This document shows, piece by piece, positions 10,749 to 53,994 of a stretch of DNA of 64,000 nucleotides. The position numbers were made by a program, and so were the translations under genes. Source of the DNA: Blasia pusilla (lineage: Eukaryota). The notes below the pieces were generated by a model that was given only the letters and a program-made list of their open reading frames with translations, ran no database searches and was not told the DNA's origin. Each line of letters starts with the position of its first letter. The first letter of the stretch is position 1. Location of the stretch: positions 44,826,001 through 44,890,000 of the forward strand of contig CM114271.1 of assembly GCA_050084515.1 (NCBI GenBank), read 5' to 3'.

Positions 10749-12502
<1,754 letters not shown>

Positions 12503-15849: not shown

Positions 15850-17640
15850 GAAGACATCCATTATGCCGATTATGGAAAGGGAGAAAAGAGATAAACTCTC
15901 TTGACGAGGATTGATTGGGAGAAGACCATTTAGATAGTAGACTTCATTACAAGTCCATAATAAACTATGTTGTAAAAATAAAAGATCAAAGTAATTTTTA
16001 GAGGGGGGAACCCAAAAACTTCCATGTAGATCCTAGTTTAGACGTAGGTGTTCACGTTCACCAACTTCTTAACAAGTTGTTTGCCTAATATTACCAACTT
16101 CATAATAATGAAGTAGGTAATGGAGGAAAGTACATAAGGGACTACCAACATGAGAATACAATAGAGATCCAAATTAAACTTGATATGCTTCGTGAAGCAT
16201 GCAAGCCATTCTTTTTGCAAGCCAAGGTATCTCCACTAGCTTTTATCATGCATATTTTCATTAATGTTTGGCACACGATATGCCCAATATAGCATTTGAT
16301 GAACTCTTTGAATTGCTAGAGCAGCATGTACTTCCATAAGGTAATTGAGAGTCAACAAATCATTATGAGGTCAAGAAGTTAATGAGCAAGGGTGGATTAG
16401 GTCATAATACTATTTATGATTTTCCAAAAGGGTATGTTTTGCTTTGTGGGAATCTTCATGAAGATGAAGAATGTCCAAAATGTGGAGAGACAAGATACAA
16501 AAAAATTGGGAATTAAGTCCATGGTTCCATCCAAGGCCTGGAGGCATTTTTCTATCATCCCAAGACAACGTGTGTTCATATTTAATGCACTTTCAAAATT
16601 GATGTGTGTCGTGCGCATACATATCGCTACACAACATACATCGCTGGTCACATCTACACCACACAACACCGATCTTCCCCACACACGGGTCGATCCACAC
16701 ATGTACAAAAATCAACTCATACATATACATGGAGATCACACAAAACAAAATAAAGAGTAGTAAAAACGGCACACCCGGCCTAAAACTCCACTCCTCAATC
16801 TACATCGGCATATCAAGCCTCGTCCACCCTATGCTATCAAGAAATCCGGAGGCTAGCACCCTAGTCCTATCTCACACACATACAAGGGAGGTGCTCCAAG
16901 GCCCAACATGAGAAAGATGACTTTGGAAAGCCATCTTCCTCTATTATATAGGGTTGGGAAGAGCCAAAAGGCTCTTCCCCTAAAAATAGCCCTCCCCTTG
17001 GTAACCTGCGCGCACAAGTTACCAGGGGCGGGTGACCTGGTCAACAAGTCACCCGATTGTAAAAGACCTCAACATGAAAGTCGTCAGAAACGGCGTTCCT
17101 GACACAATGGACCTATCCTCAACCTCATCCGACACTGTGGGACAAAGGTACACTCAAGATAGTCCGCTGGCTCCTACGCCCTATCCACAATAGATCTTGG
17201 CCTATCGGTTACTCAGATGTGACATGTGCTACACTCCAAATAATATGAGCACATCGGGTATTGTTAGCCATAACGGAGATTCAAAAGCATGGAAAAATAT
17301 AGAGCAATTGTATCGAGACTTCTTACTTGAAAATAAAGATTGTAGATTCTTTTCTCATTAGATGGTATGAACTCCTTTTTTAGAAAAGTATAGCTCGTCG
17401 TTTATCTATCTTGTTTTAGTAGTGACTTATAAATTTCCGACCACCTTGACTCCAAACCAAGAGATTCTTCATTCGATTGGTTTTGATCATGCTCTCCAAA
17501 GGGAGTCTAAATGCAAAGAATATTGACCTCTCTTGGGCTGCAATCGTGGAGGAGTTCATACAACTAGACAAGATGTAGAGTTTAACGATACGAGAAAATT
17601 AAATGGGGAGAGGAAATGTACATTTATAACCCTAATTATT
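15850..17640 (+). pseudogene. CACTA/EnSpm TnpD (Tnp2) transposase remnant
   Basis: KAWRHFSIIPR, GDSKAWKNIEQLYRDF, SLDGMN and YKFP motifs. Split by the solo AB at 16607-17224. Confidence 0.65.
16607..17224 (-). mobile_element. Solo AB unit of family 2
   Basis: Minus strand reads TGTCACATC...GCGCACGACA and is colinear with A2B2 at 52918-53558. TGTG on both flanks (16603-16606, 17225-17228). Confidence 0.85.
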
Positions 17641-29100: not shown

Positions 29101-31217
29101 TCATTTGTCATCATTGGTTGATGACAAAACTATATGACAGAATCCAAGTGACGGACAGAGCCCCCGTAGTAACCAACCGTGCAACCATGTAAGGTAGCCT
29201 ACCCACGATAAAGAACGCACGTACGTTGTGCCTTGTCGGACCCAACCACTTGTAACCACGATTGCTTCCAGGCAGAGTAGGAAGTGTAGATGCAGTAGAC
29301 GCGGTGACTATAGGAACGACCATCACGGCGGCTGCAGACAGAATGCGACAAAGGGTTGCAAGCCACAAAGCAACGGATGGCGGGACTATGGCAAGACATA
29401 GTCCCCCGATTGCATTGCAAACTGCGGCACAAACGTGGTAGGTCACGCCAGAGCCACATCGGAGCAGTTGCCGCTTATGCGGGCTGACTGAGCGACTGAG
29501 AGTAAGGTTGAATGCGGTCGGTCAACAGTCGACAAATCTGGAAAATAGTCGTAGCTCCAGATAGCAACAATCCGTGCTAGTGGTGGGTGGCGTAAGATCC
29601 GTGGCGGCTGCAGTGAGGAAGTAGCCGTGTCAGCGGGTTGTTAGCAATAGACGGGGCGGATGTGGCGTTGAGGGCAGGCCGTGGCAAATCGGGGACAAGC
29701 AGGGCGGTAGTCGAGCAAGCACGGACTCCGGAAGGTCAAAGGCCGACAAAAAATCGCAAAGTCGGAGCGCGTGAGGGTAAAGACCCAACATCAATATTAG
29801 CTACTCCCGGAGTCGAGAAGGTCATCAGCTGGACGGCGATTGAAGCAACAGGCGGAAAATCCCGTAGCGGCGGTCGTGGCATGGTAGTGTGAAGAAAGGG
29901 TAGGCCTAACGGGACGCAATAGGGAGGGCACCCTCCCCCCTTTTCTTGTCATCTTACTCAAATAAATCCTGGGAAAATTGGGTCTACTCCCTAAATCTTT
30001 CCCAATTTTGGCTTCAACTCACACTCTTCACAAAAAAATAGGGTCAAATCCCCTGATAAACAATTTTCACCCCAACTTCTACCTCAAAGGACATGTGCCC
30101 TTGTCTTATCCACATAAGTAAAAGGAATTTTTTTCCCACTTCTCAAAAATATTTCTACCCAGGGATTTTAGAAATTTCACTCACACCTTCCAATAGTGGC
30201 GATGGTAGCCACACGAGAACTATTGTAACTTATTTCTCATAAAATGAAATTGTGCACCATTTCTTCCACAAAATACACAGCTTCTTGATCTAAAAATTTG
30301 TCAAAGCGATTTCTCCATATGATCTTCCACCAAAAATTGAATGGAATTTTTATGCACCCCACTGTCTCTTTCTCCTACGCAAATTTTGGCAACGCTTCCG
30401 CGCTGATTTCTCCCAAGGAAAACTTCACACGTGTAAAATCAGCACTCAGAGGGGCACATGGTGTTGCCGAGAGCACCGACATGGGGACATTCGCCCTCAT
30501 CCTCAATATCTAATGAAAATTGGGTAGCGCTTCTGCGTGCAATTATTCCCTACAGAAATTAGCACTGAAAAATAGCAAACTCGAGCGGCTCTTGCTCCGG
30601 CGAGCACTCCCATGAGCTGCTGAATGGGGAACATGGTCCCCAACCTGGACATCAACGAGTGACTAGGAAGCTCCTCCATTGAAGCTCTCTCACTCTCTCA
30701 TTCTCTCTTTGATCAAGGAAATCTCTCTCAACATCTCACACCAAACTCTCAATGGTATGCACTCTCTCTTGTGTTGAACCAAACCCACTCTCCTAATGAG
30801 AGGCTTGGGTTACACACACAAGGCAAGGGGGACCATAGCTCCTCCGCCTCATGCCAAGAGGATCAACAAAGAGAGAATGAGCTGTGAAGCTCTCGCTCTT
30901 GGAGGTATACTCCCTTCCCTCTCCGAAGCTCTCTCCTCGGTAACTTATGCTTGCAAGTCACCTCCTTTGCTCTTGACCTGCTGTAGCAGGTAAAGGGTCA
31001 CTAACCAAAGTAGAAAGTCAACTATACTCCAAATGGTAACTTATCCAAAATAGTAAGTTTATCTATATGGCTCCAAATTAGTTGAAACGAACAGGAGACC
31101 TGCTCTCTTAGGTTACCCGTGGCCTCAACAGGTCATCCTCGATCTCCTGAGGCTGTCCTCCAATATCTCCAAAGATGCTCTATTAGATCTCTCTGATCTA
31201 TCCTAAAAGTCGTGAGA
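26156..31217 (-). mobile_element. Family-1 split-repeat element with internal deletion (A1, 5' region, gag, A2, B2)
   Basis: A1 ~30712-31217. Gag 26773-28440 matches 35770-37484. Deletion junction at 26772/26773. A2 ~26284-26772 lacks its first ~14 bp. B2 26156-26283 ends GCACGACA. Confidence 0.85.
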
Positions 31218-31249
31218 AGCCTTATGGCGATATGCATATGCAATGTTAC

Positions 31250-33679: not shown

Positions 33680-34239
33680 TGTCACGTCCTTTAGGATAGA
33701 TCGGTGAGATCTAGTAGAGCGTCTTCAAGAGTAGTGGAGGACAGGTCGAGGATGACTTGCTGAGGCCCCTAGAGGCAGGTCATCCCCTTCGTTTTGGCTC
33801 CGGGAGGTAGGTCATCCCCTTCGTTTTGCTGCTGAGGCCCCGGGAGGCAGGTCATCCCCTTCGTTTTGGCTCATTTGGAGCCATATTGAGGAACTTACTA
33901 TTTTAGGTAAGTACCATTTTGAGTATATGATCGACTTTATATTTTTGGTAAGTGGCCCTTGACCTCCTACATCACGTCAAGAGCCAAAGAGGTGACTTGG
34001 GAGAATAGGTTACCATGGAGAGAGCTTGGGAGAAGGGAGGGGTATATATCCCAAGGAGAGAGAGCTTGAGAGCTCATTCTCTCTTTGTTGAACCTCTTGG
34101 CATGAGGCGGTAGAGCTATGGTCCCTTGCCTTGTGAGTATAACCCAAGCCTCTCATTAGGAGAGTGGGTTTGGTTTGACATGAGAGAGAGTGCACACCTT
34201 TGGGAGCTATGGTGTGAGATTGTGTAGAGAGCGATTGGA
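33680..34239 (+). repeat. Split direct repeat A1
   Basis: Near-identical to 43064-43584, apart from a rearranged block at 33745-33860. Not followed by B. Confidence 0.92.
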
Positions 34240-35907
34240 TCTTACTTTACAAAGAGAGAATGCGAGAATGAGAGAGTGAGAGAGCTTCATGGGGGAACTC
34301 GCTGGTCAATCGTTGTTTTTGCAGGTTGGGGACCATGTTCCCCATTCAACTGCTCATGGGAGTGCTCATCGGAGCAAGGGTTGCTTGGATTGTTCTTTGC
34401 ATTTGCCGAGTTTTCGTGTGGAAGAGTGGCGCGCGGAAGCGCTGCCCAATTTTTGATAGTGATTGAGTATGGGGGCGGGTTGCCCCATGCCGGTGCTTTT
34501 GGGAGCACCATGTTGCTTTCTGATTTGCATTTTTATAGGTTTTACATTTTTTTTGGGAGGAATTAGCACGGAAGCGTTGCCGAATATTGGGTAGAAGAAA
34601 GAGACATTGGGCTTTACGACAGTTCCCGTCAATTTTACTCAAATGTCCAATTCCAAATGTTTTTTGATGCAGGTGTAGATCGTGAAGCTGTGCACGCTGT
34701 GCAATAACCAGTGCGCAATTTGGAGTTGCGAGCAAAAAGTTATGGTTAATCTTGAAAAACTGTCATTGCTAGGAGATTTGTATGGTTAAATTGTGCAAAC
34801 CCTAAACCAACCGCCACACCGGCGGCGGCCGTCGCCGTTATAGTCACCGTCAACCATCAACGGTCAACTTTCACCGTCCATGGTCAACCGTCACCAGCGA
34901 CGGTCAACTGTCATTGTCAATGGTCCACCGTCCATTGTCCACCCTTGGTTGCCATTGCCGCCGTTAAGGAGTGGAGGGTCTTCCACAACGTTCGTTGATT
35001 CTCGGACTTGCGTCGCCATCACGTACTTTGTTTTGGCCGCCACCGTCATCAACTTGTGATGGCATATGACCTCCTGTTATAGTGTTTGAGTTTTGATATC
35101 CTGGTGCTTGTTGTGATTGGTAGCCGCTCAACGACGATCAGGTACCGTGCCGTGACGCCCGTAGCTGCAACGCGCCGCCGATTGCCATGTCGTGCCGCTC
35201 GTGGCCGCACCGCACCATCTTGATTGCGGAGCCGCTCTGGCATTGTGGAGCAGAGTGTGGGTTTATTTTTGATTGAGGAGGGTATGCCGCCGAGTGCCGC
35301 ATCCCATCATCGAGGGTCGTGCCGTTCGTAGCCGTTCCGTGCCGCCGCAACGCCGCACCGTTCCGTTGGAACTGCACCGTCTATCGAGGAGTTTTGAGCA
35401 ACATCGGTATGGGAGGAGTATCACTTGCTGATTGGAGGAGTTGTCTCCACGACCGAGTTGGGGTCGAGATTCGCAGTTGTTGAGGAGCGACATCGACATG
35501 TGTTCAAGTTACCCATTATGGTCCTTTACCTTGCACGTGTAAGGGATTATGGGATTTGGGTAGTTTATTTGGGGATATTGGGTGTGTGAATGGTGAGAGC
35601 ATCATTTATGTATGTGATTTAGGGGACATAGACCTGTGTGGGATATCCGGAGTTGAGGGTAGGTTGTCGATGAGATGATAGCCTGGTCGATTTGCCGCAC
35701 CACGCCGCTTATTGCCGCACGTTACATCTCGGGGAGGGAGAGTGAAGATCGAGTGCCGCATGTTTGGGATGAGTGATTGAGGGATTACTCGCGAGGCAAG
35801 AGTGATCGGGTGAGAAGGGAACGAGGGTCATCACGGCATCCATTCGGGACTTTGAGAGGCGAGGTGGTGAACCCGACAGTAGCTCTAGAGGTTTTACGGG
35901 GAGTGGC

Positions 35908-37100
35908 GTGAGGTTCCGAGGGTCTTCACTTCAGGGACCACCTCGACCTCCTTCTGTGTCATCGTCAGACAAGGGGGAGGGTGTAGAGGAATTTGTGAGC
36001 ACATCGCCACACAATGTGAGTGGTCCTACTTGTTGGGCGTACGATATGGACGACCGAGGTAGAGGACCGCGTATTTTTTCAGGTGTAGTAGGTACGATTG
36101 AGTTCACAATTTCATAGCAGAGTTTAGGAGTTGGTGCGACTCCCAGCAGGCCATGAACTCTAGAGAGTTCAACACGTTTACAACATGGAACGGTATGTTC
36201 CAGCATTTAGAGGGGGCACCCATGGACGATTACCATGAGTTCTCCCACAGATATGCCCAGGAGATTGAGGCATGGCGACTCTGCTACGACCCCCACTATG
36301 TGTCATGGACGGAGCCGTTCCCAGATGAGGAGGAGGAGTCATGAGAGGCTACTTCCTCTTCCACTAGTGATGTTTTAGGAGGGGTCATTCGCACTGGAGC
36401 AGTTGCACCGTCTAGTCGGGTTCGTCCCAGGTTCAACCCTGTGGTTGAGTTCTTTGCTGAGTTGAGGGCGAGCTACCAAGGGGTATGGACAGAAAAGTTG
36501 CGGAGCATCCACAACTTCCAGAGGCGCACGGGTGAGAGTTTACGTGAGGCTTACACTCGCTTGCGCCGGTTGATCAACGTTACTCAGGGGGTGACGGAGG
36601 CTAAGGTTATCCAGTCATGGTACGCGATGCGGGACGAGACTCTACGACCACGGGTGCGGGAGGGGGTGCTTCTTATGAACATCTCCCCTACGTTGAGAGA
36701 TGTTTTTAGGACCGCCGAGAACATTAAGCGCAACATGGAGGAGGAGAGCGTAGCCACCATGGGTTCTAAGCAAGAGCAATCGCGATTGGCTCGCACCACG
36801 TGTGCAGCAACGTGGACTCCGAGATAGGTCAAGTGTGGCACCACGAGCTCAGGGAGGATACCGGGAGCCCGTGGCACAGAGACATGCGCCTTCATATGCG
36901 GCTCAACAGAAGCCGCCTACTATTACTTGTTGGCCATGTGGAAGAGCCCATCATCAGCGCCATTGCACTCGTCAGGGTCATGGACGTATGCCTCAGCATG
37001 GAGGAGGAGATGGTGCTCCACCAGGAGGTTATCAGTGTGACTATTGTTAGAGGTATGGTCATACACGCACCAAGTGTTTACGTTTACATCCTGAGTTACG
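35908..37100 (+). pseudogene. gag: gag (capsid-like region and two zinc knuckles)
   Basis: FQRRTGESLREAYTRLRRLI retrotransposon-gag motif. Knuckles CWPCGRAHHQRHC and CDYC*RYGHTRTKC. Stops and frameshifts present, true start uncertain. Confidence 0.8.
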
Positions 37101-37959
37101 TTCAGACCGAGGGCCAGAGAGGGCACCAGAGTGAGTAGCCGGTCCGGGTGGGCCTAGAGATCATGCACCAGGTGGTCCCGTTGGGGGACGAGGAGCTCGA
37201 GTTGCCCGATAGGGTGGTGGAGCTGCTTGTGGAGGAGGTAGAGTACCACCACCTAGATGCGCCGAGGGAGACGTTGGACGTGAGGTTGGGATGGCTGCTC
37301 AGATATAGCAGCTACAGGAGCAGATTGCCGCTATGGCATTGAGGTTACCTGATGCCAGATCCGTGGCATCGACATCATATGGAGCAGCTAGAGATCTGGA
37401 GGATCCTGGTTGGATGTCCGGGGCTGCCTAGATGGAGGCCGCCGCTATTGTGACGCGTGGAGCAGCCGTAGAGTTGGATCCACAACGAGAAGCCAGAAAA
37501 CAGACTAGGCTTCCTCAATCTTTCACGTTGTCCAAAGCGATGAGGATCCCATCGATGGGTCCTCATCAAAGTTCCTAGAGAGTTGGTGATGTTGTTGGTG
37601 TGCAGGCACGGAGGGCGATGGGAGAAGCGAGTGCAACGACTCCTATTGTTGATGCTCATGAGGGGCATCTGTCGAGCACATTGTTGGGGGCGGCCACCGT
37701 TGTGTACCGCACTCCTTTATTTTCTGCTTCGGATGTTATGACGTTGGGGGGTACGCCCGCCGAGGCATTTTGGCTGGCCGCGTTGCTATGTGAGCGCAGA
37801 GTTGGAGTTCTTGCATCACGTTCAGAGGTGATTGTAGAGGAGGTGATGGACCTGCCCTTGGAGCGGATGCTCGGACCGTCCACGTCAGATTCATGGCAAG
37901 CTGCGGCTGCTAGAATGGCGGAGATGCCCGCTAGACCCGCGATAGAGTATGCCATGGCT

Positions 37960-38376
37960 TCTCCTAGTGTTGTGTTGCTGGATAACCAAGGAGAGGTCTT
38001 CCAATTGGTGAGTCTTGGAGGAAGAGCTTTTAGTCCGCAACGCGTCTTGTTGGATTCAGGAGCGCAACCCCTGATGTTGGGAAAAGCGTCATTCAGAGGA
38101 TTGGGCTTGACGAGAGCCGATGTGGAGCGTTGTCCATTCCGGATACAGACATCCTTGGGTGGAGCGAATACCACACAGTATATCACCCAACAAGAGGTCA
38201 TGGTGAGGATTTGCCCGGGACATCCTACTGATGAGTCTGTGGTGCGCGCCAAGGCGATAGTGACTGATACAGAGTCCTACGACGTCTTGGTTGGTGAAGG
38301 AGTGTTATACCCGATGGGGTTTTCCCTGGATAACTGGGAGGAGTGCGTCCTACAGACCAAGATAGCAGTCAGGTGA
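37960..38376 (+). pseudogene. Retropepsin aspartic protease domain
   Basis: RVLLDSGAQPLMLG catalytic motif and C-terminal YDVLVG. Confidence 0.85.
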
Positions 38377-38761
38377 TGGGCGCCTTAGCTCATTATCCGT
38401 TCGATTCACAGGTGCAGTGATTGAGCAACGGCCAGGAGAGATGGCGACCTTAGCAGCATTTAGCAGTGCCATCACTTGGCCTAGTGATTTGATTGAGGGA
38501 CATGTCCATGCAGAGGATACTCCCGTTCCTAACATTTCTATGGAGAGGAGTGTTATGGTAGGTGCATCATTCCGTTGAGGAGAGGTGCCAATGTGGGGCT
38601 CGACTGAGGAGCTTCGACGATTGGCAGATGAGCACATGCAGACCGCGTGGAGCGAGGCATTTGCACCGGAGCGTGACGGGTTTGAGAAACCTGAGGTAGC
38701 AGGGAGTGGTATGATGACACCCTTGGATACCACACCCATTGTGTGGTGTACCCCGGAGGAG

Positions 38762-39380
38762 GGTATTTGAGTGTTAGATCTCTTTGGAGGGATTGGCACT
38801 GGGTTAGCTGCTGTTTTGTAGGCAGGAGTGCGAGTACAACAGTATCTGTATGTATAGGAGAGTGATGATGTTGCAAGGCGCGTCTCACTACGACATGTGG
38901 CGCGATTACGCCTACGTTTTCCCGACTCATTATGCAAGGTCAGCGATCTGAATACCGAGTTCCTTCCGAGGGATATTTCGTTGTTGGGGGCGCAGGACTT
39001 AGAGCGGGTAGGGACCGTTGATTTGGTCATTGCCGGTTGGCCATGTCAAGGCCAATCGAGTGTTGAACGAGGCATGGGTTGGCGGACACTCGGTCCATGT
39101 TGTTTTGGGAGATGTTGAGGGTCTTACGTCAGTTGCAGGAGTACCAGTCTCATTCTCCAACCGACATTGTGGAGAATGTGCCGATCTTAGGAGACTCCCG
39201 GTCACGGGTGGTGACAAGTGTTCATCAAGTGCGTGCCTAGATCGGCCCAACAGTGTTCTTGGGTGCGGCGAGTGTAGGATTCTTGGATGCGGCAAGAAAT
39301 GACGTCGTGATGCCTCTTGGGTCAGGCGATGGACCTGAACTGCTTGACATGGATCCTCAGCTTGGGAGTGGCTGAGCAGC
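38762..39380 (+). pseudogene. DNMT3-like C5-cytosine DNA methyltransferase domain within pol (disabled in this copy)
   Basis: Motif I GI*VLDLFGGIGTGL (38762-), motif IV DLVIAGWPCQGQS (PC at 39041-39046), GLADTRSMLFWEMLRVL, motif VI IVENV (ENV 39172-39180), motif X-like LLGQAMD (39314-). Confidence 0.9.
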
Positions 39381-39688
39381 GTCGTATGAGATCGCAACAG
39401 CTCATAGCGGTTGCGTTGGTGAGCCCCATGCCTACCGAGACGGTGGAGGTAGTGGCTGGGGGCGACACCCGAGGAGATCGGGAGAGACACCCTTGGACTT
39501 CTTGGGAATTTTTGCAAGTACGCAAGGAGATGATAGCCACAACATTGAGCGTGGTTTCGGGCATTGCACGTGGAGGAGATAAGAGTTTGCAGTTGGCTGC
39601 AAGAGAGCGGCTGAGTGTTGTTGTTCGAGACGGGGTTGCACCATAGCAACCAGCGATACCGCGACCGGAGAGTCCTACCGTAGTCACG

Positions 39689-41110
39689 ATGGAGACTTGG
39701 GAGCCATATATGGGCCCTAAGTTGACAGGAGAAGAGCGGCGCCGAATACATCAATTCCTCAAGAGTTATAGGAGCTGCTTTGCGTTTAGCATGGAGGATT
39801 TGGATACGCTGAAGGGACCGGGGATCCGCATTGAGTTGTCGAGTGATACGCCAATCTTCCGACGACCCTACAGGTACAGTGATATGGAGAGGGCTCTGAT
39901 TCAGAGTAGGAGCCAAGACTTGGTCAGAGCAGGACTAGTGGAGATGTCGCATGGACAGTATGCATCTGCCATTGTAATGCCCGCCAAGAAGGATGTGCAT
40001 GACAATTGGACGGATAGGCGGATGTGTGGGGATTACCGACCTATCAATCGGCAGACGAAGTCCGATAGGTATGCCATGCCCACCCCTGAGGAGATCTTTG
40101 ATGCGATTGGTCATGCAAAGGTCTTTAGTTCATTGATTTTTGAAGTCGGATACCATCAACTACCTATCGATTGGAGGACAAAGTAAGACGGCATTTTGGG
40201 GCATCGATCCTCACGGGAAGGATTGTTTGTACCAGTGGCGGTTCTTACCATTTGGGTTAAAGAACGCCCCGGCTGAGTTTCAGAGGGTCATGGATAGGAT
40301 CTTGGCTGGTCTGGATTTTGCTAAGTGTTATATTGATGACATCGTAGTCTTTACCGCCACGGTTGAGGATCATGAGCGACATAAAGAGGAGGTGTTTCGA
40401 CGATTGCAATTACATGGGCTGAAGCTACATCTAGGCAAGTGCAAGTTCTTCTACGACCAGATTGAGTACTTGGGTCATACGATATACCCAGGGGGCCTTG
40501 GTGTTCAGCAAATGAAGGTAGAGGCTATCTCACGCATTCCACGCCCTATAGATGTGAGCCGGGTTCGCGCATTCATGGGATTGGCGAACTTCTATCGGCA
40601 ATACGTAAAGGGATTCGGTTTGATTGCGAAGCCAATGACCTTGCTGACCAAGGTGGATCACGAGTGGCACTGGGGGGATGAGCAGGAGCAAGCATTTCAG
40701 TTGCTCAAGGACATGTTGACGTCTGTGCCCATCTTGAGGAGACCAATCAGGGGGCGTCCTTTCCAATTGCACACAGATTGGAGCATGTTGGGGCTTGCAG
40801 CGGTGCTCACCCAACATGATAATGATAGTAGAGAGTTCGTGGTGGCTTACGCTAGCCGCTCGAACAACGCTGCAGAGGCAAAGTATAGCTCGTATGAGGG
40901 TGAGTGCTTGCTGCGGTGTGGATTGTTGCATATTTCAGGTGTTACTTATTCGGCAACCCCTTGACCATCACCACTGAAGTGGTTGATGGAGTCCGACAAG
41001 CTTACAGGGAAGCTTGTGAGATGGGCTCTGTTGTTGCAGGAGTATGATTTTCAGGTGGTACATAGACCTGGGACGCTCAACCAAGATGCAGATGGGTTGA
41101 GTCGTAAACC
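39689..41110 (+). pseudogene. pol: Reverse transcriptase and RNase H (Ty3/Gypsy type)
   Basis: RMCGDYRPIN, LPFGLKNAPAEFQR, YIDD (40329-40340), LHTDWS, AYASR, YSSYEGE, NQDADGLSR. A few frameshifts. Confidence 0.95.
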
Positions 41111-41399
41111 ATGTTCGAGTCAGCGAGATGCGACTGGAGCTCGATGGCATGGAGAGAGTGATAAGGAGTCGGTGCTAGGATGGCACGCGTCAGCCTATTT
41201 AGGCATGTTGGCTTTGGAGAGCCAGAGTGTGGAGACTTCGATGGCGAGTCCTAATGGAGAGTCCTTAGATCCCGAGGCCAGTGAGGAGACGACAGGTGGC
41301 TGAGATATTCATGATGATGGAGTAGTCTTGGAGTACCTTCATGATCGGCAGCGTTTAGCAATCTTTGAGGTGCTAGAGAGCGAGATCGGATCCTACAGC

Positions 41400-42600
41400 G
41401 GGTCAGACGCTTCCGTTGGGAGGGGACACATGTTTTGAGGGTTTGGGAGGATGGCAGAGTACGCGTAGTGCCACATCTTTCGCAGAAAGCACGACTAGTG
41501 CAGCATGCCCACGAGGAGTTGGGTCACTTTGGGGTGAAGCGGACGTACAGCTTGCTCTAGATTTAGTATTGGTGGCGAGGCATGCAAACTGACGTTCAGC
41601 AGTTTGTTGCCATGTGCATGGTGTGTGATCGGGTCCGAGCATCGTTCCATGCTCTAACTCCACAGTTGCATCCATTACCGATCATGGGCTTAGGGTGTAG
41701 ATGGATTTTGGATTTTGCAGGACCTTTGCCTTTGACAGAATGTCATGGTTGTTATGTGTTGGTGATGGTCGAGCACTTCTCAAAGTGGATCGAGTTGGTT
41801 GCATTGCCTGACAAAGCGAGTGAGGGAGTAGCTTATGCCTTCCTTGACAGAGTGTTGAGTCAATATGGTGCACCGGTTGAGGTGTTGCAGACCATGGTAC
41901 CGAGTTTCGGGGTGAGTTCCAAGCCTTGTGTGATCAAGCGCTGATCGACCACCGCACGACTTGGCGAGATCATCCCGAGGCGGATGGATTAGCGGAGAGA
42001 GTTGTGCAGACGGTGAAGAGAGGTTTACGCAAGTATGGCTTGCACAGAGGTCACCTAGGAGATTGGGACCTCCAGTTGCCATGGTTGGCGATGGGAAACA
42101 GATTCAGCAGGCAGACATCCTTAGCATCTTTTTCACCGTATTTGCTACTTTATGGCCGAGAGCCAGATTTACCTACGGCCATTCGTCGAGATGCTGATGA
42201 GGTGCTGGACCTTGATGACCCAGATGTATGGGTGCGAGCATGTTCTCAGAGGGCTGAGTTGTTTTGGAGAGTGATGCCCATGGCGTTTGAGAACTTGGCG
42301 ATTGCGCAACATCGAGATACGTTGAGGTATGTGACTATTCGGGGAGGTGGTTATCGACCAACTATCGGGAGGTTTCATCGGGGAGATTTTGTCTACTTGC
42401 AGCAGACGGCACCGACGACGTTGGATGTGACTACATGGCGTACTATCCTGAGAGTGCTTGACGTTTTGCCATCCGGTGTTCTTTTGCTGGAGGGACGCGA
42501 TGGTATGGTATGGAAGGACCATGTGCGTAATTGTGCACCATGTCACCTTCCTAACATTGATAGTACAATGGATCCGAGCTTAGTAGTAGTTCCAACAGGC
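41400..42600 (+). pseudogene. DDE integrase with HHCC zinc domain
   Basis: HAHEELGHFG...CMVC, LDFAGP, EHFSKW, DHGTEF (frameshifted), HPEADGLAERVV, SPYLLLYGR. Confidence 0.93.
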
Positions 42601-42606
42601 TTGCGT

Positions 42607-42747
42607 TGTATGTTGTGTGGTTCTGCCCGTGGTGCGGCCACGATGGTGGTCTGTGATGGTTGTTCGAGAGGTTGGCATATGGCATGTCTGACGCCACCTC
42701 TCACTAGGGTTCCTTGGGGACGATGGATGTATGCCACATGTACTTAG
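42607..42747 (+). pseudogene. C-terminal PHD finger fused in frame to integrase
   Basis: CMLC...MVVCDGCSRGWHMACLTPPLTRVPWGRWMYATC fits C4HC3, with the penultimate Cys mutated to Tyr (TGT>TAT). Confidence 0.9.
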
Positions 42748-42930
42748 AGGAGATACTAGGTAGGTTTCGATCCCGACTTTTTCTCTGACATGGATGACAT
42801 GAAGGCGACTAACAATGGGGCCACATGAGCACCCGGCCTTCTTGCTCTTAGCGTCCGGGAGATGTATGTCATGGTAGGTAGGGATAGATGGCTATCTGGA
42901 GTTATAGGGACCTAACCACCAACTAGGGGG

Positions 42931-43061
42931 GCGATTGGAGATACTTTGGTACTTCTTGTCTCGTTGTTTGGATGCCATAAGTTAGCATGGGATCGTGCGT
43001 GTTTGTGTGTGTGTTTGGTGATAGCGATGTATATTGTGTAGCGATGTGTATGCGCACGACA
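42931..43061 (+). repeat. Split direct repeat B1
   Basis: Near-identical to 43578-43706. Ends GCGCACGACA. Confidence 0.92.
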
Positions 43062-43063
43062 AG

Positions 43064-43706
43064 TGTCACGTCCTTTAGGATAGATCGGTGAGATCTAGTA
43101 GAGCGTCTTCAAGAGTAGTGGAGGACAGGCCTAGGAGGTCGAGGATGACTTGCTGAGGCCCTGGAAAACCTGAGAGACCAGGTTTCCCCTTCGTTTTGGC
43201 TCATTTGGAGCCATATTGAGGAACTTACTATTTTAGGTAAGTACCATTTTGAGTATATGATCAGCTTTCTATTTTTTGTAAGTGGCCCTTGACCTCCTAC
43301 ATTAGGTGAAGAGCCAAAGAGGTGACTTGGGAGAATAGGTTACCATGGAGAGAGATTGGGAGAGGGAAGGGGTATATATCCCAATGAGAGAGAGCTTGAG
43401 AGCTCATTCTCTCTTTGTTGAACCTCTTGGCATGAGGCGGCAGAGCTATGGTCCCTTGCCTTGTGAGTATAACCCAAGCCTCTCATTAGGAGAGTGGGTT
43501 TGGTTTGACATGAGAGAGAGTGCACACCTTTGAGAGCTATGGTGTGAGATTGTATAGAGAGAGATTATGTAGAGAGAGATTGGAGATATTTTGGTACTTC
43601 TTGTCTCATTGTTTGGATGCCATGAGTTAGCATGGGATCGTGCGTGTTTGTGTGTGTGTTCGGTGATAGCGATGTATGTTGTGTAGCGATGTGTATGCGC
43701 ACAACA
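43064..43706 (+). repeat. Split direct repeats A2 (43064-43584) and B2 (43578-43706)
   Basis: A2 matches A1 and B2 matches B1. They overlap at GATTGGA. Confidence 0.92.
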
Positions 43707-44832
43707 TATGTTACAAATCTTGGAGATACAAAGTGACCTACTCTGTTCGTGCGCTCACACAAGAGCTTCGATGGAATTGGCCTTGAACATGGATATAACT
43801 CGTCATACGAGAATACGTTATCACTATGGCTCCCGGCTATTTGACTTCTCGAGAAATCAGGGTTTTTACCTAATTTTCTTTGTTTCTATTTATAGAAAAA
43901 ACCGTGAGGGATTGCGTCCTATACCCCCGCGTCATTTGGCATCGCATCTAATCCTACTCCAAAAACCACCTTCATGATATTATTATAACTCCTCCAACGT
44001 CTAAGTCTGAACCATCAGTCCAAGCTTCTCCTTGTATAAGGGGGCCGATCAGTTTAATGTTGAGAATCCAATATTTTTTTGATAGTGACTAATAAATTTG
44101 CTTGAAGTAATTAATTTCAAAGTGGGTTGATTCATTGAATTGTGATGGTGAATATTTGATAATTAGAGAATAAATTTTTCTATCACAAAGTATACAAGTT
44201 TGGGAGCATCTAATTTTTGGCTAGCCAAATCTCACACATCGATGACAAAGATAAATTCCATGGAAGAAAATTTCCAATTGGCCTCTTGAAATTCAAAGTT
44301 TTGATTGTTAATGATCATAGTGCATAACTCCTATTTCCAAACTTGGACAATGATCCACCACAACTATTGGTCAATCAAGCTTTGGGTAGTTATCAGTTGT
44401 GGCCAAACAGTAATGCCAAGAAAACTCAAATTCTTGCACCTTAGTTTTTAAATTAGATTAGAGATTATTTTAGGTTTTTTGGTGAATTCCAATTCCTCTT
44501 TTACAAGAATTTTGAACTTCAATTTATGTTGTTAGTCCTAGTGCTATATGCACATTTTGGCTAGTAGTGTTGTGAGTTATATTTCTATTGTTAAGTTTGA
44601 ATATCTTCCATCATCATAGAAATGAACGTCAATGAATCTTTGTTTATTGAATTTCATGCATCATCATAAGATGCAACATGCATATGATATATTTTTTTCA
44701 TCGTTATTTTTCTAATATTCATGTAATTTCAAGCTACATTGTGGGCTTCTAATGATTTTGAAATTCTTTACATTAAGGAAACTGGTATAGTTATTAAATA
44801 GGTATCATGTGCATACACAATATACATTATGG

Positions 44833-45901
44833 TATCATGCGCATACACAACATACATTGTTGTAATTGAATCTACAAAAAAAACACATAAGATGTCATAC
44901 TAATTCATGACATATAAACATCGAGACAATTGAGTATCAAAATATCTCTAATAAATCAAAATCTTTTATAACGTGCAGACAAATCCATCTCTCCATATTA
45001 TGCCAAACTAAATTTACTCTCCTAATAAGAGGTTTGGATTACTCATAAGGCAAGGAGGACCATAACTCTGTCGCCTCATGCTAAGAGATTCAACAAAGAG
45101 AGAATAAGCGGGGTCTACTTCCTTCCCTCTCCTAAGCTCTCTACGTGGTAACCTATGGTCGCATATCATCTCCTTGGCTCTTGACATGCTGAAGAGAATG
45201 AAGGGTAACTTCCCAAAGTGGAAAGTGAGCTATATTCATAACATTGTATTATCCGAAATAGTAAGTGTATAAATATAGCTCCAAATGAGCAAAAACGAAG
45301 GGAATGTTGGATTCTCAAAATCCACTTCTCTCCCCAACATTAATATGATTGGCCCCCTTATATGAGGAGAAGCCTAGATTGATGCTTCCGACTTAGATGT
45401 TGAAGGAGTCATAGTAATATGACGTAGGTGGTTTATGGAGTAGCGTTATTAGGATTTTATGACCCTATATTGCATAAGGGTCCGGGGCACCCTGACGCGT
45501 CCTAGGAGCGCAGTCCCTGGTATGCCAAGATGATGCAGGGGTCGGGCAAACTTTATCTATAAATAGAAACAAAGAAAAATAGACAAAAAATCTTAGTTTC
45601 CCGAGTGGTGACATAGTCGGGAGCCGCAACGGTAGCACATTCTCGTATGTCGAGTAATCTCAATGTTCAGGTTCCATCTAAGCTCTTCTCTGAGCGCACA
45701 GACGGACTAGGCCACTTTGTATCTCCATGATTTGCAACATATTTTAGTGATTCCCTCGCATTCTTTTTTCTCGTAGGGAAAACCTCCTCTCCAAGGTTAC
45801 TTGAGGCCTCAACAAGTCATTTTGACCTTCTCAGGCTGTCCTCTGGTATCCTCAGAGCCGCCCTGCTAGAAACTCGTCAATCTATCCTACAAGACGTGCC
45901 A
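44833..45901 (-). mobile_element. Solo AB unit of family 1, interrupted by a solo LTR
   Basis: B at 44833-44950, A at 44990-45304 and 45781-45901. ATGG on both flanks (44829-44832, 45902-45905). Confidence 0.75.
45305..45775 (-). mobile_element. Conventional solo LTR with 5-bp TSD
   Basis: TGTTGG...TCGTA on the plus strand, flanked by GGGAA at 45300-45304 and 45776-45780. Homologous to 43711-44073. Confidence 0.8.
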
Positions 45902-47590: not shown

Positions 47591-50072
47591 ATTGGAAACT
47601 CAAGGATCATGCAATTATAGAAACATGGCAAGCGAGAGAGACATATTTCATGATATGAAATGAGCCACTAGCACCATCAATTCTCATGAGTCATAAGCTC
47701 TACATAGTCCTACTTGCTATAGATATGGAAAGATATTTTGGATGCTTTCCAATCTAATCCTTCTGATTCTATGTACACACTAACACATAAGGAATGAAAA
47801 TTTGAACTTCTTGTTGTTACTACTAAGAACATTGTTGGAATAACTTTGTAACACTCCCACTTAGTGACTATAGCAAGTAAGTTTATTCTTGTGCTAAATA
47901 GGCATATCTTTAGCCAATCCTTTTATAAGAATATTTGCTACCGTGCATACCATCAATGTCACAATAGATCACTTTAATGACCTCCTATTGTATCAAATCT
48001 CGTATAAAATGATATTGAATGTCAATGTGCTTTATTCCATCATTTTATATGCTATTCTCTAGCAATGCAATTGCACCTTTATTACCCCAATCTACAATGA
48101 TATAATATTTTCAATGTCCTAGATCAGCAAGTAAATTCCTTAATCAAGTTGCTTTGGTGCTTGCTCTTGCTAAAGCCATATACTTTGATTATGTAGTTGA
48201 GGAAGCTATTGAATTTTGCTTCTTACTCACTCAACTAACGGCTCCATGACCCAATATGAAAAAAATCCAAAAGTTTGCCTTATGCCATCAAGGATTCAAG
48301 CCCAATCAGCATCAGAGTAACCAATCAATCTTCCATCATTAGAGGATCTCTACAACTTCATATCGATGGATACTTTACCTTTCAAGTATCAAAAGATTCT
48401 CTTGATTGCATTCCGGTGCTTTTGTTTAGGGTTAGCCATGTAATATGATACAACACTAATAAAAAAAGATAATTGTACTCAACTTCAATACTTTAGTACA
48501 ACTTCTAACCAAGAGAATATCAACTACATTCAAGGCCAAGTATAAATAGTCTTTTTTTTTTTAAGAACATAAACATTTGAATCTGAAATGTATTTCTCAA
48601 AATTTAACCTCAACAAGTAAAAGTCCATCCTTTGATACCACAATGTTGACAATTGCTTCAAGAAAGAAAGGTTTATTTAGCCTCCATACACACTCGATCT
48701 GATTACGGCCCTTACATATATGCCTTGTTTTGTTTCTTGGCCGGGAAAGCTATCCAACACATCAACTTGATTCGTGTGACTTTTCCTATCATAGATTGAA
48801 AATTCTGCATTTTGAGAGAAGTTATTAGATTCATGTAATTATATATGTGGGGTTATGAGATTTGTATGATATTAATAAGTTCGTGTGACATTACTACAAT
48901 TTTGTGTGACTTTAAGACTTAAACTCACGTCTATACGAACTTAAATTTTCTCGAGTTGTATATATGAACTTTCTCAAACCTCTTTCGTTGCGGGAGACTT
49001 CCATCTTGGATTTTTATCTCTCGGAGGGCTCGCGATATCCCGGATCCCATGGCCGAAGGAAAATATATCAACCCACCTACTATTGTGGGTTGGCGGTAAC
49101 TTCGTGTCCTATCTTTGCTGTGGCATGGAGTTAACCTTTCCTTCTTCCTAACTTAAATTAAATAATGTTTTACATCAATCTCTCCTAAAAAGAGGGCCGC
49201 ATATTGGTTGGTAAGAGTCTCTTAACCCTTTTGCTTCAAGTATATCATTCAAGAATGTCGTTTCCACATCCAATTGATGTATCTCAATATCAAATTACGC
49301 CCCTAAAGCATAATCTATTTCCGTTAGTGTTCTCTCTAAAAAGTGCAATAGTGAGTTTAATGTAGACTATGGTTTGCACCAAGCCTGATCCATCTTGGTA
49401 CAAAGCATAACCCGCGTCAAATTCACTATTGCACTTGTATAAGGAACCTTCTTCAAAAAGCATGATTTATCATCATTTTCTGGGCAATCTCTCTCAATGA
49501 CCCTTTGGTCTCACTTGATAAGATTAAACAAAAGTTTATAATAATACATGTTCAATCTTTTCACAAATCTTTAAGTGTATCTTTCATGGGAATGTTAAAT
49601 CCATCCCTCCTCTCTAATTCGAGTAACCTCCATATGTAGGAAGTTATGGATCTCTCCAAGGTCTATCATCTTGAATTCCTTCTTCAATAAGTCATTTACA
49701 AACTTCAATAGTTTAGTACAATTGCTAGCCAAGAGAATATCATCTACATATAAGGCCAAGTATGAATAACATTTTTTTAAAGAATATAAACATTTGAATC
49801 CGAAATAGATCTCTCAAAATTTAACTTCAACAAGAAAGAGTCCATTCTTTGATACCACAATCTTGACAACTGGTTCAAGCCATTTTTTTTGCCTCCACAC
49901 ATACTTGACTTGATTGGTAAGACTCTCCTACCCCGTTTGCTTTAAGTAAATAATTCAAGAATGTCATTTTCACATCCAAATTATGCACCTAAAGCAAGAA
50001 TTACCCAAATTGATGTAGTCTTAACCACATGTATGAATATGAGTATAATAAATTCCATAAAGCTGAGAATAT
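47591..50072 (-). mobile_element. Ty1/Copia 3' fragment: RT and RNase H remnants, PPT and 3' LTR (~47591-47853)
   Basis: IGYSDADWA, KHIDIQYHFIRD, LALYVDDILL, HQLDVETTFLN. AAGTGGGAG PPT then TGTTAC. RT is partly duplicated and continues at 53563-53610 (GSIKRYKEKLVVKG) beyond the family-2 insertion. Confidence 0.8.
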
Positions 50073-53000
50073 TGTCACATCTTATTCCGACGTAGGTAGA
50101 GTTCTATCGTGTCGACGACATAGTGAGTCAACGGGCTGTTTGGGTGTAACTTTGTCTCAAGATGTCGGATAAGGTTGGCAACAGGTCTGTTGTGTCGGGA
50201 ATGTTGTTTATGGCAATTTCCATATTTTGGTTTTAGGCTGTCAAGTAGCCCGTTCACCGAGTCAACGGTCACTCGATAACCTGTGCACATAGGTTACCGT
50301 TTGGAGGGCTACTTTTTTGGGAAGAGCCTTTTGGCTCTCCCCAAGGATATAAGAATGAGAGAGATGGTTTTCCCAAGCTATCTTTCTCATGTTGAGCCTT
50401 AGGAGCGCCTCTCTTGCATAGACGTGTGTGGATACGTAGGAGTTAGGGTGCTAGCGTCCCGATTCCCTCGTAGTAGAGGGTGGATGTGGTGTCGCCTTAA
50501 GGAATAACTCAGTTTTCCTCGAGTCTAGAGTTGCTCTTTCGGAAGAAGAAAATTGAAATAACCGCTTCTCAAACTCCGCAATAATTCATTTGAAGTCATT
50601 CACTTCCCTAGACGTTGCTCTATCCATTCTAAAAAACCCCTCTTAGTCACCCAATCCACATCATCATGGAAGAATTCTCCTTTCAGCAACTGCTCATACT
50701 CCTCCCACGAGGTTGGATTTTTTGCTCTCAACTTCTTTACTTGACTATGAATCTTTGGTGTTACAGCTAAGTCAAAACTTGACACCATATCACCTTCGGG
50801 TACACGATTTACCTCCATCTCACATACTTACTCTCTAACATACTTGGTGATGTTCATCCCATCAAATCTCCCCAACTTCTTTACAATCGCTTGAAGAGCC
50901 CTTGTTGATCTTTGCTCTCCTATGTGAACTCCTCCTTGTTGGCTCAACAATGTTGTCAAAGTTCGGAGAAGATCCTCAACTCCCTCAGTTCCCATTGATG
51001 AAGTACTACCAAAAGTCGTCATCTTGATAAGACTCCAACTTGCAAACACAATCTACCACCTCAAAGATCTCTTAGTGGAAGCACCATTTGTCATGTCGAG
51101 AGCCTTTCTTTGAGTAAGGGCAGGCCTTCTAGTTGCGGCAGACGTGGTCGATGAAAGGTGAACTCTCTAAGAAGTTATATGTTTTCAATACAAAATTATT
51201 ATGTATACTCTCCATTCTCTTACAATAGGTATCACAAATGGAAGTGTCGAGGCGATCACTTCTTTGTAACATCGGACCCCGGAATTCCTAACTATAAAAT
51301 CCCTATAAACTACTTTGCGCTTGTACACGAGGAAGATAGCACAACTAATGTTAAACCCTAATTGAGCAGGCCTATTGACGTCCGTGGATCGCTATATAAG
51401 GACATACAAAGTACAATCCCATGTATTTCCATATGTAACGATAGGAAGGATCACCGAAGTTGGAGATTGAATGATCTGGTTCATGAACACCTCTCAAAAG
51501 TGATAAACTAAATAGCGAGTGAACCAATGCTTATCTACAAAAAGTATCTTGACATGGTATGGATTCAGGAAAGGAAAGTCGGGCATAACTCGTGCTCCAT
51601 CCCTATCCACGCTTGACAGACATTCTCTACTCTCCTCAAGAATGAGTTTTGGCGGAGTTATTCTCCCAAGAGGGGTAGTCCACTCTCATTGGGAAAGTAA
51701 CAAGCCAAAATATCCACTATTTTAGTATGACTAAACTCTTATAAGGTAACAAACCTCTCATCTCCACACACACACACCACACTCTAGAATCCTCTTCAAG
51801 AATAGACCATGGTCAAGTTACTCTCCCAATAAAGGTGATCCACTCTCATTGGAAGAGCAAGTAATCCCAAAGCCATACACTCAAGAGTGACACGAGAAAC
51901 TCAAGATGCGGAATAGAAGGTGATGAACCCTTGAAAGTCTCTCCTCTTTATATACTCACAAGTGATCCATAAGAGTACGAAATAGAACTAATCTTATCTT
52001 GTGCCACATGGCTTCCTCTCAAGGCTTAGCCAATCACATTTTGACGCAAGTAGATTTCCTCTTATCTCTGCCAAAATATCCTCTTTTACCCACTTGATAT
52101 TTTCGAAATTACCCCAACTAACCTAGCCACCAACCAAACCTAGCTTTTCTTTTCATTAAAGCTCCAACCTCACTACTTTACTTTTATAAAGTCGTCTTTT
52201 ATTTATTACCTCTTTTCCTAAAGTTGGGCCCGCATAAAAGAGGCACCATAAAGAGGTTTAAACATGGGAATTTACTTTTCCTAAGCTAATTTACTTAATA
52301 CTAATAAAACCCTATCTAACACTTAACGAGGAAAGAGTTTACACACTGGCTGATTTTACTACACGACAATGGTGACCACGTTGGCAACATTCATAGTTGG
52401 TGTTCATTGATCAGAAGGGTTTGGAGAGAGGAGCACACATGCGGAGGATATTCTCGTAGTGGATAGTCCCACAGAGAGACATGCCAAGGTGGGTGTTTCT
52501 TTCCATGGTTCAGAACTTCTTTATTATTGTTCGGGACGAGCGTTGAGATGCATGGAGTGCAGATAAGATCGTGAGGTAGGCGTGGAGCTGTGCCTATGCT
52601 TGGATCAAGGTACGAGAGTGTTAGATCTCTCCGGAGGGATCAACACAGGGGGTTGTTGTAGTGTGGCAGTGTTGTAGGGATGACGATATCGATGTGTGTA
52701 GGATAGGAGATCTTGTCGGATACATATGTATGTGCTATCTCGAGTTAGGGGGACCCAACTGCCAGCTAGGGGGCGGTTTTCGGGTCCCAGTATATATGTG
52801 TGAGTATGTTTCATTTATGTGTGGATCTACTCGTATGTCGGGGAAGATTGGTGTTGTGTGGTGTGTACATGTGACCAACAATGTGGGTTGTATAGCAATG
52901 TGTATGCACACGATAATTGTCACATATTATTTCAACGCAAGTAGAGTTCTATCACATCGACGGCATAATGAGTTAGCGGGATGTTTGGGTGTAACTTTGT

Positions 53001-53558
53001 CCGGAGATGTCGGATGAGGTTGGCGACAAGTCTGTTGTGTCAAGATTATGGAAACAAGTCTGTTGTTTATGGCGATTTTCCTATTTTGGTTTTAGGCTGT
53101 CAGGTGATCCGTTGACCGAGTCAACGGTCACCCGCTAACCTGTGCACGCAGGTTACCGTTATGAGGGCTATTTTTGGGGGAAGATCCTTTTGGCTCTTCC
53201 TAAGGTATGAGAATGAGAGAGATGGCTTTCTCAAGCCATCTTTATCATGTTGAGCCTTAGGAGCGTCTCTATTGCATAGACGTGTGTGGATGTGATTGAG
53301 TTAGGGTGCTAGCGTCCGGATTTCCTCATAGCTGAGGGTGGATGTGGTTCGATATGCCAATGTAGATTCATGAGTGTAGTTTTAGGCTGAGTGAGCCATT
53401 TTTACTACTCTTGATTTTGTTGTGGGATCCCAGTGTCTACGTGTGAGTATGTTTCATTTATGTGTGGATCTACCCATATGTTGGGGAAGATTGGTGTTGT
53501 GTGGTGTATAGATGTGACCAACAATGTGGGTTGTGTAGCGATGTGTATGCGCACCACA
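50073..53558 (+). mobile_element. Family-2 split-repeat element (A1', inserts, MTase remnant, B1', A2', B2')
   Basis: A1' 50073-50490 matches A2' 52918-53350. B1' ~52776-52915 matches B2' ~53419-53558. Junction CACGATA-AT-TGTCACA. ATAT on both flanks (50069-50072, 53559-53562). Confidence 0.88.
50491..51554 (-). mobile_element. Ty3/Gypsy 5' fragment (LTR 51089-51554, TGG-starting PBS, gag) nested in the family-2 element
   Basis: ORFs 50828-51049 and 50600-50818 (LGRFDGMNITKY, SWEEYEQLLKGEF) are gag-like. LTR homologous to 8521-8973. Confidence 0.65.
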
Positions 53559-53994
53559 ATATCCTTTAACCACCAATTTTCTTTATACCTTTTAATGCTC
53601 CCATTGCTTCCAATGTAGAGATGTTAGGATTCATAGCTAGATGGATCTTAGATATATATGTACATGACAGCCGATGTATGTTGGCAGTGATGTGTATTCG
53701 CACAACATAGATTTCAAATTTTGTACATGTCTTATGTGATTAGGTACAGGTTGACCCAATGCGCTTTAATCAAAATTTTCTTCTTTGCACATAGATTAGT
53801 TCAAAAATGCGTACATCTACTCCCGGGATGCCCTCTCGTGAAGAACCGGTTCTCGGGAAGTCCACAAGCATCAAAACTGACGACCGGGATGAATGTCGAG
53901 TACGAGTGAGTTGCCACAGTATAAACTTCCACTATGAATTGATGCCTTTTACTTGTGGTGCCATATATTGACCAATGACATCAAGTGTAAGCAA

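Follow-up and report, generated by a model that had tools for sequence, protein, structure and literature searches.

Positions 50073 to 53558 of a 64,000-nucleotide (nt) stretch of the Blasia pusilla genome (assembly GCA_050084515.1, contig CM114271.1, positions 44,826,001 to 44,890,000 of the forward strand; hereafter the window) hold an old, non-autonomous and rearranged member of a Ty3/gypsy retrotransposon lineage with split terminal repeats. We refer to this element as family 2 and to a full-length reference of the same architecture, at 33680 to 43706, as family 1. The two identical terminal repeats of the Ty3/gypsy type are not present here. Instead, the left end consists of a segment A only (A1), the right end of A followed by a segment B (A2 and B2), and an extra B (B1) stands before A2. 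The same order recurs in relatives outside the window, which suggests that the layout is lineage-wide. Judging from its primer sites and integration tips, such an element may insert from complementary DNA (cDNA) whose two ends have been joined. The interest of the case lies in this mechanism of the lineage more than in the family 2 copy itself.

The first-pass annotation of this DNA had proposed that family 2 keeps the order A1–internal–B1–NN–A2–B2, in which NN is a 2-nt spacer, between copies of a 4-base-pair (bp) target-site duplication. A repeat search and BLAST against the window bear out this order on the plus strand. A1 (50073 to 50490) starts with TGTCAC and aligns with A2 (52918 to 53348 in this comparison) at 83% over 432 nt, and B1 (52776 to 52915/17) matches B2 (53419 to 53558/60) at 89-90%. 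B1 proper covers 52776 to 52915 and ends in ...GTGTATGCACACGATA. Its 3' end, ...CACACGATA, is followed by the spacer AT (52916 to 52917), the centre of an inverted-repeat junction between B end and A start, and then by TGTCACAT, the start of A2. B2 occupies 53413 to 53558, its start placed by comparison with the B at 1704, and ends in ...GCGCACCACA. Immediately upstream of B1 lies a polypurine-tract motif, CTAGGGGGCG (52766 to 52775), also found before B1 of family 1 and at 1692. The element's tips are TGTCAC…CACCACA, and the flanks read gaatat/TGTCAC and CACCACA/atatcc, so that the predicted duplication, ATAT, is found on both sides (50069 to 50072 and 53559 to 53562). The insertion was also said to interrupt the reverse transcriptase of a Copia element. 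Consistent with this, a Copia-type domain (Pfam RVT_2, E 4.5e-9) lies on the minus strand at 49598 to 49813, and with one 4-bp copy taken out, the minus-strand frames on the two flanks of the insert form a continuous reading frame. The right-hand piece, of 21 amino acids, gave no Pfam match on its own.

The first-pass boundaries of A2 and B2 need one correction. The repeats themselves are real, but the 64 nt at 53349 to 53412 that had been placed between them belong to A. The same 64 nt are present in a solo family 2 copy on the minus strand at 16607 to 17224, in which A extends to the equivalent of about 53412. A2 (52918 to 53412) is therefore a full-length A, and A1, which lacks about the last 64 nt, is 3'-truncated at 50490. 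This comparison also ruled out the apparent gap of 64-70 nt as filler at the junction between A2 and B2.

Most of the interior of the family 2 copy is foreign. Positions 50491 to 52368 carry, on the minus strand, a fragment of another long terminal repeat (LTR) element, here called Y, which begins with TGTCGTG at 52368 and contains weak gag-like open reading frames (ORFs); the Retrotrans_gag match reaches only E 0.11. RNA reads cover the fragment at a depth of 17-79 per bin, in a sense opposite to that of family 1. Reads that continue past 52368 on the minus strand agree, at 0.98-0.99, on one upstream sequence, ...GGAGGGGGTGAA, ahead of TGTCGTG. In these reads a purine run lies four bases ahead of the TG, and we therefore take 50491 to 52368 to be the 5' part of a different, more ordinary LTR element that was nested in reverse and then truncated. 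One RNA joint, leading from the Y region to 41409 on the opposite strand, is unexplained. Only 52369 to 52775 is family 2 interior, and it matches 1287 to 1691; the part before the polypurine tract (52369 to 52765), a remnant of the 3' untranslated region, does so at 81%. After insertion, most of the interior and the last part of A1 disappeared from the copy, which now holds a reversed fragment of another element.

We found no pol of its own in the family 2 copy and no autonomous family 2 member within the window. Two relatives are present. The unit at 16607 to 17224 is a solo A-B with 75% identity, flanked by a 4-bp duplication, CACA. The other, at 1287 to 1842 on the plus strand, is the 3' end of an element and comprises interior, polypurine tract (1692 to 1699) and B (1704 to 1842), with no NN-A-B after it; its upstream partner, at 1 to 1286, shows no integrase similarity to family 1.

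Family 1 presents the architecture at full length on the plus strand, flanked by the duplication TATG. A1 (33680 to 34236/49) contains a TATA motif (34043 to 34050) and a predicted self-primer (34075 to 34088), and is followed by a predicted primer-binding site (34249 to 34262). At the other end, a polypurine tract (42923 to 42932) adjoins B1 (42933 to 43061), after which come the spacer AG, A2 (43064 to 43566, extending up to 43577 at the edge of B2) and B2 (43578 to 43706). The pol region (39647 to 42747) holds, in order, the Pfam domains RVT_1, RT_RNaseH_2, Integrase_H2C2, rve and PHD, which is the arrangement of a Ty3/gypsy element with a DDE integrase and a C-terminal PHD finger. Gag-like and protease-like parts are also encoded. 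Neither a tyrosine recombinase domain (in the Pfam search) nor a cytosine methylase domain was found in the family 1 ORFs.

The two families had been described as unlike except at their tips. BLAST matches between family 2 and 33680 to 43706 are indeed limited to the last 28-35 nt of B, and the A starts have TGTCAC[A/G]TC in common. The description overlooked one more likeness, in the motif that directly precedes B1 (CCAACTAGGGGGGC in family 1, CCAGCTAGGGGGCG in family 2). With this polypurine block and about 20-35 nt of the B tip in common, the families do not differ completely. The lineage has left at least five separate remnants in the window.

To follow the architecture further, we counted copies in the window and in metagenome contigs. 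A protein search with the integrase-PHD part of family 1 returned 247 relatives, 120 of them listed. Among the matches listed, the nearest named relatives come from liverworts (Marchantia polymorpha, 76%, and Calypogeia fissa), and further ones from Klebsormidium and chlorophycean algae. The hosts of the lineage appear to be liverwort-like plants and others, and its relatives extend to charophyte and chlorophyte algae. No tyrosine recombinase (PF00589) is among the precomputed domains of the 120 proteins listed, most of which carry rve. Nine of the proteins, P0015, P0064, P0072, P0081, P0086, P0093, P0099, P0100 and P0115, also bear a C5 cytosine methylase domain (PF00145), which fits the methyltransferase-carrying gypsy elements described for Klebsormidium.

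Using the alignment of these relatives, we drew 80 loci from metagenome contigs and searched each of them for the A and B of two reference elements. In 25 of the 80 loci the integrase gene is directly followed by B-A-B; merging five groups of contigs with common flanks leaves 19 distinct insertions. They represent two additional families, with integrases that share 46-79% identity with that of family 1. At two more loci (L029 and L039) the sequence ends after B-A, and L029 also has a 5' A. In four full A…B-A-B elements a single A lies about 8-9.5 kb upstream; the 4-bp duplication is perfect in L028 (CATA), L071 (AAAG) and L079 (TTTA, an element too decayed for a domain scan) and matches at three of four positions in L036. 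None of the 14 loci that hold a 5' end has B beside A1, so that these loci include no ordinary LTR pair and no mirror form. Within each of six full elements, the A1/A2 and B1/B2 pairs are about equally diverged (for example, 89/89, 87/85 and 91/93), indicating that both pairs date from one event. The first-pass annotation had argued that the architecture is old and conserved by mechanism, not an accident of one copy, and had proposed a search of related genomes for the B tip followed by NN-TGTCAC. The loci drawn through the integrase show the B-A-B order outside the window, and the argument gains support from family 1, from the 19 insertions, from the 14 5' ends and from the polypurine tract and self-priming site that lie at the points where the repeats are split.

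The position of the polypurine tract is the first clue to how these elements might replicate. In both window families, and likewise at 1692, B1 begins directly after a G-run tract. Of 54 loci examined, 47 have a run of at least 5 G in the 16 nt that precede the first B. Five of the other seven have an interrupted G-run, and in the remaining two the first B detected is B2. The tract therefore stands 115-200 nt upstream of the TG of A2, not directly before it as in ordinary Ty3/gypsy elements.

The second clue lies at the end of A1. By eye, no transfer RNA (tRNA)-type primer site is evident after A1 in any family, and tRNA priming was dropped in favour of self-priming. Sequence at the A1 end is complementary to an internal stretch of A, an arrangement that would suit priming of the Tf1 type. 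Each of three families has a different pair, namely CTCATTCTCTCTTTG / CAAAGAGAGAATGAG, (AACATA)GTTCTTTGAGT / ACTCAAAGAAC(TATGTT) and TTTTTCTAGAATT / AATTCTAGAAAAA. The complementary word measures 14-15 nt in family 1 and in a further family-1-like copy at 26156 to 31218; for the second family the figure is 9-17 nt, for the third 13-15 nt. Words of 12-17 nt occur in 8 of 13 elements, whereas 500 control windows taken from the same element never reach such a length. The primer stretch inside A follows a TATA motif at a distance of about 25-32 nt, where the RNA should start.

We mapped three raw-read RNA runs bearing the same species label at 90% likeness. Family 1 is covered in sense orientation at a depth of about 7-136 per bin, with a sharp drop past the element. 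The reads differ by 5-10% from the window's family 1 copy, so they come from its relatives. No start sites were seen in the reads at the predicted self-primer stretch. In one run, fragment ends pile up at 43561/43563, beside the end of A2, a hint that the RNA may end where A ends. The expressed relatives lack 1087 nt of leader (34260 to 35346) and have 37 other letters in their place (RNA joint 34259→35347); the window copy may carry a leader insertion or a different leader variant. A second joint, 34074→35347, was seen in one contig and dropped as a candidate RNA start because its GAGAG-rich flank makes the placement ambiguous.

The polypurine tract and primer site adjoin the start of B1 and the end of A1; the integration tips lie elsewhere. 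The TG…CA tips and the target-site duplication map to the junction between B end and A start, which in the best-kept copies reads GACA-GC-TGTC, a perfect palindrome. The variants AC and GT of the spacer are transitions. Transitions of CAGCTG are expected from decay at CHG methylation sites, and because GC, AC and GT are all related in this way, a spacer newly made at each junction was ruled out. Among 13 units checked, the 4-bp duplication is perfect in nine, matches at 3 of 4 bp in two and is absent in two. One family also has a hairpin near its A start (CATGCCCGTA…TACGGGCATG).

The joint between A2 and B2 behaves differently from the other junctions. It is either blunt (…CAAT/ATACATG) or has a 2-nt overlap (…CAATACATG), and the two types are interspersed on a tree of 16 loci of one family, which disfavours simple inheritance of the joint. 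Other copies have joints of their own: L048 carries over 5 nt of the primer site, L010 (of another family) has a 19-nt filler, family 1 has a 15-nt local duplication, and L036 combines a local duplication with the loss of 5 nt from the B start. In the same loci, the junctions between polypurine tract and B1 and across B1-NN-A2 are regular, point changes aside. The A2-B2 joint thus looks like a product of end joining, or of end-to-end template switching, newly made at each insertion.

A polypurine tract at the B1 start and a primer site at the A1 end imply that the LTR of reverse transcription is B-NN-A. By ordinary rules of reverse transcription, the cDNA would read [B-NN-A]–interior–[B-NN-A], with B-NN-A corresponding to the unique 3' and repeated regions (U3-R) and little or no unique 5' region (U5). 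Since the integration tips lie at the junction inside this LTR, the integrated copy is a circular permutation of the predicted cDNA: it starts at the internal junction of the left LTR, continues through the right LTR and stops at the end of B, and its A2-B2 joint corresponds to the U5 end meeting the U3 start. The account that we favour, as somewhat more likely than not, has three steps. Both cDNA ends would be joined, as a two-LTR circle or an equivalent end-to-end form. Integrase would then cut the internal palindrome of the upstream LTR, exposing A start and B end. These two ends would finally insert with a 4-bp stagger to yield A–interior–B–NN–A–B.

Several observations weigh against this account. 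That the ends are joined, that integrase cleaves there and that it picks the upstream palindrome is all deduced from integrated copies. A circle has two equivalent palindromes, so a mirror form, A-B-NN-A–interior–B, is expected; it occurs at none of the 14 5' ends and in neither of the window's two full elements, and this asymmetry is unexplained. In five of the 13 elements, decay has left only 6-11 nt of primer-site complementarity, which in three of them is no better than in many control windows, and the family 2 copy has lost its primer-binding region, so that this feature is seen only in relatives. The hint of an RNA 3' end relies on 10 molecules from one of the three runs. In one run, five RNA reads span an A-B joint, which means that the joint is sometimes transcribed and in principle heritable. 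Finally, in 25 loci B follows the integrase gene with no A-B behind it. Three of these have too little sequence after B, L053 proved by eye to have A behind B, and two are the same locus, which leaves about 20 that end with B and have no NN-A-B (L001, L003, L004, L008, L013, L018, L027, L031, L033, L035, L038, L041, L043, L046, L050, L062, L063, L065 and L072). The full A…B copies L004, L043 and L072 have perfect 4-bp duplications, and 1287 to 1842 of the window looks alike. A simple A…B unit could be inserted directly, as a second product or even as the main one. The count itself is uncertain, as short-read assembly could partly collapse B repeats. If the cDNA ends are joined as proposed, B-ending copies would arise by recombination between B1 and B2 or by the opening of a one-LTR circle. 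Solo A-B units would arise by recombination between A1 and A2, and 16607 to 17224 is the remnant expected from such an event.

Other explanations deal differently with the joint and the asymmetry. Reverse transcriptase might produce the extra B without any circle, if the plus strand, on reaching the 5' end of the minus strand with its primer, jumped from there to the opposite end of the cDNA and copied B again to give a linear cDNA with an additional B on the right. Integrase would then use the right B end and the internal left A start, and B-NN would be dropped as a long 3'-processing product. Such a jump would be one-sided and would account for the single orientation at all 14 5' ends; the 0-5 nt of primer site, the 2-nt microhomology and the short local duplications fit end-to-end template switching as well as they fit end joining. 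Nothing supports this route directly, however, integrase would have to cut 115-180 nt inside the left end, and the sequence offers no reason why only the plus strand should jump. We regard it as rather unlikely. Less likely still is a templated regeneration of the DIRS/Ngaro type, in which RNA would run from inside A1 to inside B2, the A2-B2 joint would be copied from the parent, the outer parts of A1 and B2 would be restored from the internal B1-NN-A2, and integrase would take the place of a tyrosine recombinase. The repeat order is that given for Ngaro, PAT and VIPER in passages of PMC4157794, PMC6681497 and PMC8547959. The five spanning reads would suit such copying, as would the likeness, at 75%, of the family 2 solo copy to A2-B2 of family 2 over the whole A-B stretch. 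Yet an inherited joint should follow the tree, and the observed types are interspersed on it, with fillers and primer-site bases private to single copies. In addition, going by the polypurine tract and self-priming site, the cDNA should end precisely on either side of the joint.

The remaining possibility is that family 2 is an ordinary element with an LTR composed of A+B, whose 5' LTR was split by a nested insertion or deletion and which resembles family 1 by chance. The copy has truly been rearranged, with a truncated A1 and a foreign, reversed interior. But family 1 and 19 distinct insertions from two other families show the same order, the polypurine tract precedes B1 instead of A2, the primer-binding site follows A1 instead of a B, B is beside A1 at none of the 14 5' ends, and the duplication flanks the whole A1…B2 unit. 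We consider damage of this kind a negligible prospect.

The layout has a precedent in print for a gypsy element, and others among elements with a tyrosine recombinase. The legend to Fig. 4c of de Mendoza et al. 2018 (PMC5890265) gives KnitGypsy-Dnmt3, of Klebsormidium nitens, DIRS-like repeats in the order A–coding–B–A–B together with Gypsy domains. The arrangement in a gypsy element has thus been noted once already, for KnitGypsy-Dnmt3, to judge from that legend, and family 2 is a further, decayed member of this scarcely described kind. Family 1 shares both the A–coding–B–A–B order and the gypsy domains shown there, and a K. nitens protein 51% identical to its integrase-PHD part is among the listed relatives, in the same protein neighbourhood as KnitGypsy-Dnmt3. 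Unlike the element in the legend, family 1 lacks a Dnmt3-type cytosine methyltransferase; PF00145 is present in some relatives. Section 9 and the figure legends of PMC5890265 contain no account of primer sites, duplications or mechanism, and searches of the main texts of open papers turned up neither such an account nor another mention of the architecture in integrase-bearing elements.

Ngaro, PAT-like and VIPER elements, of the DIRS order, have split direct repeats in the form A1–[ORFs]–B1A2B2, and their isolated A-B units are thought to be recombination products, according to passages in PMC8547959, PMC4157794 and PMC6681497. The present lineage shares with these descriptions the order A1–interior–B1A2B2 and the occurrence of an isolated A-B unit. 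It differs from the DIRS order as described there, with its tyrosine recombinase, in having a DDE (rve) integrase, TG…CA tips and a 4-bp target duplication. Predicted self-priming is a possible point of contact with a different group. Gypsy elements of the Tf1/sushi group prime themselves, and the survey in PMC6317226, as far as its relevant passages go, predicted this among plant gypsy elements only for the Tcn1 clade. As in that group, no tRNA-type site is evident here, and a putative primer site beside the 5' repeat is complementary to the predicted RNA 5' end; the repeat architecture is not the ordinary LTR pair. Cleavage of a palindromic LTR-LTR junction in two-LTR circles is described for the integrases of foamy virus and HIV-1 in passages of PMC1180852 and PMC1905944. 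Our elements resemble the viruses so described in combining a DDE integrase with an internal palindromic CA…TG junction, the cutting of which we infer from sequence. In the viruses the palindrome is made by end joining, whereas here it would belong to the LTR permanently, and the joining of ends would create another junction, between A and B. Lastly, the legend to Fig. 6A of PMC9940879 describes Gypsy-7a_cRei of Chlamydomonas reinhardtii as having a PHD finger and an integrase, and a left LTR without the final 8 bp of the right one. Going by the legend, this asymmetry could be a miniature of the split-repeat one, at 8 bp instead of 115-180 bp.

The anatomy described here separates the ends of reverse transcription from the ends used by integrase, which are one and the same in every textbook retroelement. 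Because standard LTR finders look for two equal repeats bordered on the inside by a polypurine tract and a primer site, they will overlook these elements or place their boundaries wrongly, and the lineage is therefore probably under-annotated in bryophyte and algal genomes. A stronger form of our proposal, that an integrase-bearing gypsy lineage of green plants integrates only through end-joined cDNA opened at a permanent internal palindrome, is one we advance tentatively and with more doubt than belief. If it were true, the lineage would be a natural case of the old route of integration from a circle with tandem LTRs. The joined-end route, should it operate, would explain the solo A-B units and the repeat-free A…B copies, offer a tractable natural system for the study of integrase cleavage at an internal palindrome, and represent a plausible ancestral state for the split repeats of tyrosine-recombinase retrotransposons. 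On the stronger form of the proposal, the lineage could even be the missing link in the origin of the split repeats of DIRS, Ngaro and PAT elements. Ngaro, PAT-like and VIPER elements are not known to make a target duplication. We also speculate that B2 supplies sequence owned by the element downstream of the RNA 3' end, which would allow one and the same R to be passed over at the 5' end but to act at the 3' end.

The window holds further fragments of the lineage. The family-1-like copy at 26156 to 31218 (minus strand) retains A1, the self-priming pair, the gag region and A2-B2, and a deletion took its pol, polypurine tract, B1, NN and the first 15 nt of A2. Positions 9207 to 12966 are a complex of family-1-like pieces. 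The 3' part of an integrase gene, a decayed polypurine tract, B, the spacer GT and an A start come first; A starts anew at 10748, and a (GA)n run that begins at 11186 precedes another B and A. Clean duplications were not found in this complex, which probably consists of nested insertions. Decayed A/B-like and integrase-like fragments of the same lineage lie at 44803 to 45901 and 21970 to 23527, both on the minus strand. Apart from these elements, a 285-nt inverted repeat pair with 85% identity (2702 to 2984 and 8180 to 8460, about 5.2 kb apart) possibly marks a DNA transposon with long terminal inverted repeats.

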